NCBI RefSeq assembly: GCF_003334305.1
Contig: NZ_QOWS01000007.1
Length of the DNA: 64,000 nt
Origin: Escherichia coli
GTDB taxonomy: Bacteria; Pseudomonadota; Gammaproteobacteria; Enterobacterales; Enterobacteriaceae
Strand: one strand, 5' to 3'
Shown here: piece after piece, positions 22,109 through 26,117 of the stretch
Layout: each line of letters begins with the position of its first letter
How positions within the stretch are numbered: the stretch's first letter is position 1
Program-made: the position numbers and the translations under genes
The notes under the pieces: model-generated
Told to the model about the DNA's origin: nothing
What the model saw: only the letters and a program-made list of their open reading frames with translations
Databases searched by the model: none

Positions 22109-25100
22109 ATGGCGAATTTCTTTATTGATCGCCCCATTTTTGCCTGGGTGCTGGCAATCCTGTTGTGTCTGACAGGTACCCTGGCGATTTTCTCATTGCC
22201 CGTTGAACAATACCCCGATCTCGCGCCACCGAATGTGCGAGTGACCGCTAACTATCCCGGCGCATCGGCCCAGACGCTGGAAAACACCGTGACCCAGGTT
22301 ATCGAGCAAAATATGACCGGCCTCGATAATCTCATGTATATGTCATCTCAGAGCAGTGGCACCGGTCAGGCATCTGTCACTTTAAGTTTTAAAGCAGGCA
22401 CCGATCCGGACGAAGCCGTGCAGCAAGTACAAAACCAGCTGCAATCAGCCATGCGAAAGTTACCGCAGGCGGTGCAAAATCAGGGCGTGACGGTGCGTAA
22501 AACCGGCGATACCAATATTCTGACCATTGCTTTCGTCTCTACCGATGGTTCGATGGATAAACAGGATATTGCCGATTATGTTGCCAGTAATATTCAGGAC
22601 CCGTTAAGCCGCGTGAATGGCGTCGGGGATATCGATGCCTATGGTTCGCAATATTCCATGCGTATCTGGCTGGACCCGGCGAAACTCAACAGTTTCCAGA
22701 TGACGGCTAAAGATGTCACTGATGCCATTGAGTCACAGAACGCGCAGATTGCGGTTGGGCAACTTGGTGGTACACCTTCCGTCGATAAGCAGGCGCTCAA
22801 CGCCACCATTAACGCCCAGTCACTGCTGCAAACACCAGAACAGTTCCGCGATATCACCTTGCGGGTGAATCAAGACGGCTCAGAGGTAAGGCTGGGCGAT
22901 GTCGCCACCGTCGAAATGGGGGCGGAGAAATACGATTATCTTAGCCGCTTCAATGGTAAGCCAGCCTCCGGGCTGGGGGTAAAACTGGCCTCCGGCGCAA
23001 ACGAAATGGCGACAGCGGAGCTGGTGCTCAATCGTCTCGACGAGCTGGCGCAGTACTTCCCGCACGGACTGGAATACAAGGTGGCGTATGAAACCACCTC
23101 GTTTGTTAAAGCCTCCATTGAAGACGTGGTGAAAACGCTGCTGGAAGCTATCGCTCTGGTTTTCCTCGTTATGTATCTGTTCCTGCAAAACTTCCGCGCC
23201 ACGCTGATACCCACTATCGCCGTGCCGGTGGTGTTGATGGGAACCTTCTCCGTACTTTACGCCTTTGGTTACAGCGTCAACACCTTAACCATGTTCGCGA
23301 TGGTGCTGGCGATCGGTCTGCTGGTGGATGACGCCATCGTGGTGGTGGAAAACGTCGAACGTATTATGAGTGAGGAAGGACTCACTCCTCGCGAAGCCAC
23401 ACGTAAATCGATGGGGCAGATCCAGGGGGCACTGGTCGGGATTGCGATGGTTCTTTCGGCGGTATTTGTACCAATGGCCTTCTTCGGCGGCACCACCGGT
23501 GCCATCTATCGCCAGTTCTCTATTACCATTGTTGCGGCGATGGTGCTGTCAGTACTGGTAGCGATGATCCTCACTCCGGCTCTGTGTGCCACACTACTTA
23601 AGCCACTGAAAAAAGGTGAGCATCACGGGCAAAAAGGCTTTTTTGCCTGGTTTAACCAGATGTTTAACCGCAACGCCGAACGCTACGAAAAAGGGGTGGC
23701 GAAAATTCTCCACCGTAGCCTGCGCTGGATTGTGATTTATGTCCTGCTGCTTGGCGGCATGGTGTTCCTGTTCCTGCGTTTGCCGACGTCGTTCTTACCG
23801 CTGGAAGACCGTGGCATGTTTACTACCTCGGTACAATTGCCCAGCGGTTCAACCCAACAACAGACCCTGAAAGTCGTTGAGCAAATCGAGAAATATTACT
23901 TCACCCATGAAAAAGACAACATCATGTCGGTGTTTGCCACTGTTGGTTCTGGCCCCGGGGGTAACGGGCAAAACGTGGCGCGAATGTTTATCCGCCTGAA
24001 AGACTGGAGCGAACGCGACAGTAAGACCGGCACCTCGTTTGCCATTATCGAGCGTGCAACAAAGGCGTTTAACAAGATTAAAGAAGCTCGCGTTATCGCC
24101 AGCAGCCCGCCAGCAATTAGCGGTCTTGGTAGTTCTGCGGGTTTTGATATGGAGTTGCAGGACCACGCTGGAGCAGGTCACGATGCGCTGATGGCAGCAC
24201 GTAACCAGTTGCTGGCGCTGGCGGCGGAAAACCCGGAGCTAACCCGTGTGCGCCATAACGGCCTCGACGACAGTCCGCAGTTGCAGATTGATATCGACCA
24301 GCGTAAAGCTCAGGCGCTGGGCGTTGATATCGACGATATTAACGACACACTGCAAACCGCCTGGGGTTCGAGCTATGTTAATGACTTTATGGATCGCGGT
24401 CGCGTGAAGAAAGTCTATGTGCAGGCAGCTGCGCCGTATCGCATGCTGCCAGATGACATTAATCTCTGGTATGTCCGAAATAAAGATGGCGGCATGGTGC
24501 CCTTCTCTGCTTTCGCGACCTCACGCTGGGAGACAGGCTCGCCGCGTCTGGAACGCTATAACGGTTATTCTGCGGTTGAGATTGTTGGGGAAGCCGCACC
24601 GGGGGTCAGTACCGGTACGGCGATGGATATTATGGAATCGTTAGTGAAGCAGTTGCCAAACGGCTTTGGTCTGGAGTGGACGGCGATGTCGTATCAGGAG
24701 CGGCTTTCCGGCGCGCAGGCTCCGGCGCTGTACGCCATTTCCTTGCTGGTAGTATTCCTGTGTCTGGCGGCATTGTATGAAAGCTGGTCGGTACCGTTCT
24801 CGGTAATGCTGGTCGTGCCGCTGGGGGTTATCGGCGCGCTGCTGGCAACCTGGATGCGCGGGCTGGAAAACGACGTTTACTTCCAGGTGGGCCTGTTAAC
24901 GGTCATTGGTTTATCGGCGAAAAACGCCATCCTGATCGTCGAGTTTGCTAACGAGATGAACCAAAAAGGCCACGACCTGTTTGAAGCGACGCTCCACGCC
25001 TGCCGTCAGCGTTTACGCCCGATTCTGATGACCTCGCTGGCATTTATCTTCGGCGTATTGCCAATGGCAACCAGCACGGGTGCCGGTTCCGGTGGTCAGC

Positions 25101-25222
25101 ATGCGGTGGGTACTGGCGTAATGGGCGGGATGATTTCAGCTACTATTCTGGCTATTTACTTCGTGCCGCTGTTCTTTGTGCTGGTGCGCCGCCGCTTCCC
25201 GCTGAAGCCGCGCCCGGAATAA
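22109..25222 (+). CDS. acrD: RND-family aminoglycoside/multidrug efflux pump AcrD
   Basis: 1037-aa ORF with 12-TM RND architecture, recognised AcrD. Confidence 0.95.
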
Positions 25223-25228
25223 GCAATA

Positions 25229-25262
25229 AAAAAGGCGACATGCCAATGTGTCGCCTTTTTCA
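25229..25262 (+). terminator. Rho-independent terminator after acrD
   Basis: Hairpin ggcgacatgccaatgtgtcgcc followed by a T-run (tttttc). Confidence 0.7.
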
Positions 25263-25320
25263 ACTTTCCGATTAAGAACCTGCTCAGCGGGTTCTTGCTG
25301 TTTATACTTTGTCTCGGGAA

Positions 25321-25380
25321 TTACTTACGAAGCATAACTTCGATAAAGTCTTTCCAGTTCCCCAGTTCACGTTCAATCAT
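25321..25380 (-). CDS. ypfM: Small protein YpfM (19 aa)
   Basis: Reverse complement encodes MIERELGNWKDFIEVMLRK*, identical to the recalled YpfM; not in the ORF track (below its size cutoff). Confidence 0.6.
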   Translation of the reverse strand: MIERELGNWKDFIEVMLRK

Positions 25381-25742
25381 AACAACCTCTCTTATAATTA
25401 TGGGTATTCTACGGAAACAATATACCGTGGTGAAGCTAATTTACTCGATTGCTGCGATGACTACCTCCGGGGGACAAACCTTATGTAAATACTATGGTCC
25501 TGCGGTGATAATTTGTATGTGATACACAGCAACATTTCGAGATATTCATACGGCATCTAATACTGATTTAATTCTGGTTAAAATACAGACAGATAACAAG
25601 ATGAATATTCTTAATGTTTACGTTAAAAATGTTTAATATTATTTAATAGTTGTTAATTTGAATACTTCGATAATGTTATATTTCCTGATAATCATTTGCA
25701 GGCAAAATGTTTTCACCCTTAAATGAGTATTTATTCTCATAA

Positions 25743-26117
<375 letters not shown>

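Follow-up and report, generated by a model that had tools for sequence, protein, structure and literature searches.

The described systems closest to ypfM of Escherichia coli are the small protein and RNA pairs AzuC/AzuCR, SgrT/SgrS and SpfP/Spot 42. In these, as in ypfM, a very short ORF lies on a short transcript that ends at a terminator and associates with Hfq, and AzuC has in common with YpfM an amphipathic helix, which in the case of YpfM is predicted. They differ in that ypfM has no known or conserved base-pairing seed or target, and in that YpfM is net-neutral and probably soluble. AcrZ resembles YpfM in its small size and in being connected, by genomic position or regulation, with an RND efflux gene; AcrZ is a transmembrane helix of 49 amino acids, whereas YpfM has eight charged residues among its 19, no transmembrane segment, and a linkage to acrD that is broken in Dickeya. 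Characterised bacterial microproteins usually act by docking on a larger protein.

At the RNA level, the counterpart of ypfM is STnc250 of Salmonella. This transcript was found by Sittka et al. (2008) in Hfq co-immunoprecipitates with 24 reads against 6 in the control, i.e. a 4-fold enrichment, gave a stable and growth-phase-dependent Northern band of about 220 nt, and was reclassified by its discoverers as the small ypfM mRNA (PMC2515195). In RNA-seq of S. Typhi, no other mapped Hfq-bound RNA was as abundant as STnc250 (PMC2704369). It shares locus and strand with ypfM and is orthologous by synteny, and its Rfam model comprises the final six codons together with the 3'UTR and the terminator; Rfam classes the entry as an sRNA, whereas the transcript is a small mRNA. 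Regarding the protein, intact YpfM was observed by top-down mass spectrometry with 100% coverage and carrying N-formyl-methionine in a 2025 proteomics study, and it was also detected by DIA and by PRM, the latter reproducibly in low-Mn M63 medium only (PMC12529367). The gene has been called 'of unknown function' (PMC12093975). No partner, phenotype, localisation or function of YpfM was found in the literature examined, and a full-text search with the peptide sequence returned no papers.

The locus studied here lies in the window, by which we mean the whole 64-kb stretch of E. coli DNA that was analysed. The sequence-only reading had proposed that the reverse strand from 25380 to 25321 encodes the small protein YpfM, in an ORF below the size cutoff of the ORF track. 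The translation of this segment is exactly MIERELGNWKDFIEVMLRK followed by a stop, the peptide is the same as the one proposed, and RefSeq annotates precisely this ORF as ypfM ('protein YpfM', WP_001386977.1) between acrD and yffB, with 19/19 residues identical to those of the window. As for the size cutoff, the lowest floor of the ORF lister is 20 amino acids, so that the 19-residue ypfM was missed and only spurious overlapping frames were displayed in its place. The proposed intergenic placement is likewise right: the ORF lies between an acrD ORF of 1037 amino acids (22109..25222, plus strand) and a yffB ORF of 118 amino acids (25761..26117, plus strand). The gene ypfM has been annotated since the early sRNA screens. 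NCBIfam holds a 19-position equivalog model for YpfM (NF033843, small_YpfM, cutoff 33 bits), and the window ORF, which agrees with YpfM in sequence, position and strand without any difference, is the founding member of this family. When this model was scanned against family members, a 30-residue variant from Lelliottia, which shares 17 of its first 18 residues with the window peptide, scored 50.2 bits, and the distant Yersinia homologue scored 32.1 bits, slightly below the cutoff. The ypfM region was present in all 5426 complete RefSeq E. coli genomes (megablast). We are practically certain that the ORF is ypfM and codes for protein. It is thus an already known, curated small-protein gene whose product has been detected by mass spectrometry. 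The coordinates of its features are collected in Table 1.

Table 1. Sequence features of the ypfM locus, in positions of the window.
Feature	Position	Strand	Evidence
ypfM coding sequence, 19 codons and TAA stop, encoding MIERELGNWKDFIEVMLRK	25321..25380	-	translation, annotation, conservation
Sigma-70 -35 hexamer of ypfM, TTCACC	25429..25434	-	consensus scan; cTTCAC kept in register across genera; also PMC3946193
-10 hexamer of ypfM, TAGAAT	25406..25411	-	consensus scan, cross-genus conservation; also PMC3946193
Shine-Dalgarno sequence of ypfM, AAGAGAGG	25386..25393	-	read from sequence, 5 nt upstream of ATG
Additional stem-loop in the Escherichia ypfM 3'UTR (CAAGAACCCGCUGAGCAGGUUCUUA), 11-bp stem	25273..25297	-	folding
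Intrinsic terminator of ypfM, stem of 12-14 bp followed by UUUUUUAUU	25222..25262	-	hairpin search, folding, comparison
AT-rich divergent promoter spacer between ypfM and yffB	25381..25760	.	GC content

A short ORF alone is not unusual: ATG-started ORFs of 15-30 codons number 246 in the window, and 12 of them have a Shine-Dalgarno sequence. Among these 246, ypfM is alone in combining a Shine-Dalgarno sequence with a downstream hairpin and T-run terminator. What places ypfM far beyond chance is codon-level conservation across species, which the sequence-only reading had suggested as a check within Enterobacteriaceae. For this comparison, 80 syntenic loci anchored on yffB were sampled from Enterobacterales, one per species. 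A YpfM ORF was found upstream of yffB and on the opposite strand in 73 of these 80 species, covering Escherichia, Citrobacter, Enterobacter, Klebsiella, Kosakonia and Cedecea and reaching as far as Yersinia, Dickeya and an Erwinia-like lineage. Together with the window this gives 74 sequences, all of which start with ATG and 72 of which are exactly 19 codons long; all three stop codons occur. Across the 53 distinct coding sequences, entropy was 0.20 at codon positions 1 and 2 and 0.69 at position 3, and variation affected the third position of 15 of the 19 codons, the first position of 8 and the second position of 5. The summed pN/pS was 0.154 in frame (the check thus came out in favour of coding), compared to 1.83 and 1.69 in the shifted frames, and on the same genomes ypfM had a lower value than yffB (0.128 against 0.243). 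Nine residues stay the same over the whole range from E. coli to Yersinia and Dickeya. Mean pairwise identity was highest in the ORF (0.89), followed by the 5'UTR (0.77), the promoter (0.61), the far upstream region (0.51) and the initial 45 nt of the 3'UTR (0.49); outside the coding sequence, conservation is confined to the promoter, the 5'UTR bearing the Shine-Dalgarno sequence and the terminator. Altogether, ypfM is under strong purifying selection at the amino acid level.

The strand opposite to ypfM also carries an open frame, listed in the window as a TTG-started ORF of 75 amino acids (25295..25522, plus strand). This frame stays open in every species compared, with a length that ranges from 35 to 109 amino acids, which is what chance openness would produce; we therefore regard it as spurious.

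A profile search against 1.84 billion representative proteins gave 250 matches. The best 150 of these 250 were inspected and consisted of standalone peptides of about 19 amino acids, or else of miscalls at the same locus, stop-loss variants and rare internal duplications; none of these best 150 was a domain of a larger protein or belonged to a recognisably different family. The stop-loss variants include the Lelliottia nimipressuralis protein (locus L031, 2111..2022, minus strand), in which a K19N change extends YpfM to 30 amino acids. A second, non-identical YpfM of 31 amino acids (P0039) has a similar tail (NDIQQELQEHLIS), and as two non-identical sequences carry it, the C-terminal extension seems to persist in a lineage. 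Within E. coli, the 226-nt ypfM region of strain EC93 aligns as two pieces over 249 nt, which suggests an insertion or duplication of about 23 nt, and in another strain the contiguous part makes up only 65% of the region, which also aligns to a second place in that record (the two genomes concerned are H16, NZ_CP061329.1, and H29, NZ_CP062815.1). One reported copy of the ypfM region is carried by a plasmid.

The gene is an independently transcribed, monocistronic unit, with its own sigma-70 promoter, a strong Shine-Dalgarno sequence and a terminator that it shares back-to-back with acrD. The cTTCAC and TAGAAT motifs and the Shine-Dalgarno sequence keep a constant spacing to the ATG across genera, and the Shine-Dalgarno sequence is conserved in nearly all 74 sequences and unpaired in the centroid fold. 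The same promoter, TTCACC-17-TAGAAT, was listed for ypfM in an in vitro genomic SELEX with the RpoD holoenzyme (PMC3946193). From the promoter geometry we infer a transcription start near 25399, a 5'UTR of about 19 nt and, with the 3'UTR of about 100 nt in the window, a transcript of about 180 nt. The distance from the stop codon to the end of the T tract varied between 57 and 126 nt among the ypfM sequences. The terminator hairpin, located at 25262-25227 in the window, has an A-run on one side and a T-run on the other, making it bidirectional, and it ends both acrD and ypfM, which are convergent. A terminator-like hairpin with a T-run was present within 140 nt past the ypfM stop in 61 of 74 sequences, its stem varying on both arms (GCGACC/GGTCGC, GGCGGC/GCCGCC, AGCGCC/GGCGCT). 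Since this strong terminator follows ypfM and the convergent acrD comes next, there is no downstream gene in the transcription unit, and ypfM cannot be a leader peptide or upstream regulatory ORF. The terminator hairpin also gave weak matches, at chance level, to CsrC-type Rfam models at their terminator ends. The additional stem-loop in the 3'UTR is not conserved outside Escherichia and is missing from the Rfam consensus of STnc250.

On the other side of ypfM, the AT-rich stretch of 380 bp that the sequence-only reading had pointed out was borne out by its composition: GC content is 31.1% over 25381-25760 and 25.1% in its core (25530-25760), compared to 52.9% for the whole window. Among species, this spacer between ypfM and yffB measures 202 to 1540 bp, with a median of 389 bp, and it has been flagged as bound by H-NS (PMC3946193). 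Several candidate regulatory links were discarded. A Fur box in the spacer (TGATAATCATT, 25686-25696, within 25681-25699) matches the consensus at 13/19 positions, a value reached by 26% of shuffles, and its position is not conserved across genera. A CRP site over the -35 hexamer was rejected as well, its left half-site matching, by eye, at about 1/5 positions. Lastly, an RpoS SELEX peak listed beside ypfM is located inside acrD and is uninformative on ypfM.

Turning to the peptide, YpfM contains four basic and four acidic residues and has a net charge of zero. Its Eisenberg hydrophobicity averages -0.12, and it has no stretch of the length needed to cross a membrane; a single-pass membrane small protein similar to AcrZ, or a type I toxin, was rejected for want of a hydrophobic transmembrane helix. 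The hydrophobic moment at 100 degrees is 0.546, which 2.8% of shuffles reach. The invariant or near-invariant residues I2, E5, L6, W9, I13, M16 and L17 follow a 4-3-4-3 spacing along a hydrophobic face. Two positions are hypervariable, 4 (R/H/T/I/V) and 15 (V/G/D/A/N/Q/L/S), and both are on the polar face. AlphaFold2, when given the natural 30-residue Lelliottia stop-loss variant with the family alignment, modelled residues 2-29 as one helix, at pLDDT values of 90 and 96 for the first two blocks of ten residues. YpfM is thus predicted to be a single amphipathic alpha-helix, and is probably soluble; the lone helix of 19 residues may be disordered until bound. In the Lelliottia variant the extension is predicted to continue the helix. 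A PDB profile search with the YpfM family yielded one chance match (E = 1.4) and no related structure, and YpfM had no match among the PADLOC defence models.

At the RNA level, the Rfam STnc250 model (RF01409) matches 25222-25341 on the ypfM strand with 37.3 bits (E = 6.6e-06), model positions 1-94 being fully covered. The gathering threshold of 42 bits is not reached by the E. coli locus because of the additional hairpin in its 3'UTR, where 37 nt stand in place of 13 in the model. Synonymous divergence of ypfM is somewhat reduced (pS 0.405; 18-codon windows of yffB and dapE average 0.62, and only 3.6% of them are as low), which leaves room for RNA-level constraint besides coding. Synonymous sites are almost frozen across 50 genomes at codons 5-10 (25351-25368, minus strand; GAA CTG GGG AAC TGG AAA). 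These codons hold the direct 7-mer GAACTGG twice, and rare public YpfM variants carry in-frame duplications exactly at this repeat, e.g. MIERELGNWGTGELGNWKDFIEVMLRK (P0003) and a triple version (P0006). In most genera, the first 14 or so nucleotides after the stop (25307-25320, minus strand) are complementary to codons 8-11 (CUGGAAAG, 25348-25359). The longest match averaged 5.8 nt, compared to 3.55 nt in control windows located further along these 3'UTRs and 3.73 nt in shuffles, and reached at least 5 nt in 59 of 71 sequences. When each sequence was folded by itself (MFE), 4 nt or more of codons 5-10 were paired to the 30 nt that follow the stop in 52 of 71 sequences, in most cases enclosing an inner hairpin over codons 12-19. 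Such pairing together with the inner hairpin would put the ypfM stop codon inside a composite stem-loop of which the ORF side is invariant. The inner hairpin was set aside as support for an RNA function: it is 93.5% paired with 0 compensatory changes, the same as the shuffle control, and gives no independent support because conservation of the peptide can by itself bring about the pairing. An ungapped RNAalifold run on the 5'UTR, the ORF and 30 nt found no consensus structure, owing to indels after the stop. Lastly, the 25 nt upstream of the ATG (ATAATAATAAGAGAGG, L004-L081) are conserved more than the Shine-Dalgarno sequence alone requires.

In our preferred explanation, ypfM would be a peptide-encoding, monocistronic gene that acts through partner docking, and we consider this account as a whole reasonably likely. 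The selected product would be the peptide itself. With its invariant hydrophobic face (I2, L6, W9, I13, M16 and L17, with E5 and F12 at the flanks), YpfM would dock on a larger protein, whose activity or stability it would modulate. The binding mechanism taken by itself, for which the conservation pattern and the analogy with other microproteins speak, has in our estimate an even chance of being right.

Many small proteins of E. coli are membrane-associated, and a helix with the strong amphipathicity and the confident prediction of YpfM could also sit at the cytoplasmic surface of the inner membrane and act there, in the way of AzuC with GlpD, instead of being a soluble peptide that binds a partner. 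YpfM and AzuC moreover share their single reproducible PRM condition, low-Mn M63 medium (PMC12529367). However, such a role is less likely for YpfM because it is net-neutral and rather polar, with a zero net charge, an Eisenberg value of -0.12, 8/19 charged residues and no basic flank for anionic lipid. On the Eisenberg plot, this composition falls under the boundary for surface-seeking helices, and we hold the membrane-surface location to be unlikely. The neighbourhood raises a different membrane connection, namely that YpfM modulates the adjacent RND pump AcrD as AcrZ does AcrB. Expression of acrZ is regulated by MarA, Rob and SoxS. The two genes co-occur strikingly: in 71 loci acrD and ypfM converge on a common terminator, the 7 loci without ypfM all lack acrD beside yffB as well, and a MarA ChIP peak falls in the Salmonella spacer between ypfM and yffB, although the MarA motif there is weak (p = 3.7e-05) and the final table column leaves the site unflagged (PMC10268841). 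The co-absence could, however, mean that a single contiguous DNA block was lost or gained. In Dickeya oryzae (L080), ypfM is still divergent to yffB but acrD is absent, and a cspE-like gene and crcB lie downstream instead; because of this, and because YpfM, unlike AcrZ, has no transmembrane character, we regard a part in efflux as very improbable.

The remaining alternatives concern the transcript. The ypfM RNA could in addition be an Hfq-dependent base-pairing regulator, in the manner of SgrS/SgrT, Spot 42/SpfP and AzuCR/AzuC. Runs of ARN triplets are a known Hfq distal-face motif, and at least four such triplets across the Shine-Dalgarno sequence occur in 30 of 55 distinct 5'UTRs, compared to 5% of shuffles; the E. 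coli 5'UTR, however, has two only, because of an A-to-T change. The long U-tract of the terminator, the match of the ypfM strand to STnc250, an 'Hfq binding RNA' model, the abundance of the transcript in S. Typhi (PMC2704369) and its enrichment with Salmonella Hfq (PMC2515195) point in the same direction, as do the mildly reduced synonymous divergence and the almost frozen codons 5-10. Against this, a 4-fold enrichment from 24 reads is modest and equally fits the ypfM mRNA being a target of Hfq, the original authors themselves arrived at a small mRNA (PMC2515195), and the first 18 codons of dapE have an equally low pS (0.372). In the cross-genus alignment no conserved, accessible seed beyond coding needs was found in the 3'UTR, which between stop and terminator has an identity of 0.49 and a variable length. 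Base-pairing regulation by the ypfM transcript therefore seems doubtful to us, and the same low probability applies when a second RNA-level function is framed more broadly, either as an Hfq-dependent regulator or as a self-regulating mRNA in which a conserved helix would control translation or stability. In the self-regulating version, this helix would be formed by codons 8-11 and the first nucleotides after the stop. More radically, the peptide could be irrelevant, its frame being open by chance or translated only for an effect in cis on the RNA, e.g. on its stability. ORFs of similar size are common in the window, as the 246 counted above attest, and the 3' half of ypfM is complementary to the sequence directly past its stop, so that translation could remodel the RNA. 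However, the conservation pattern already contradicts this: pN/pS is 0.15, length and start codon are fixed, and nine residues do not vary from E. coli to Yersinia and Dickeya. YpfM also accumulates to levels detectable by mass spectrometry (PMC12529367), and we give an irrelevant peptide next to no probability.

As a discovery, ypfM adds nothing, since the gene is annotated, its family model curated and its peptide seen by mass spectrometry. It is instead a good positive control, in which a reader working from the letters of the DNA recovered a real gene that is invisible to standard ORF tracks. A second RNA function, if true, would explain the near-frozen codons 5-10 and the Hfq association. 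YpfM itself is among the shortest conserved and abundant bacterial proteins without a known function, and its conservation map, in which the hydrophobic face is invariant, two polar positions are free to vary and a C-terminal extension is tolerated in a Lelliottia lineage, is a concrete basis for mutagenesis and partner searches.
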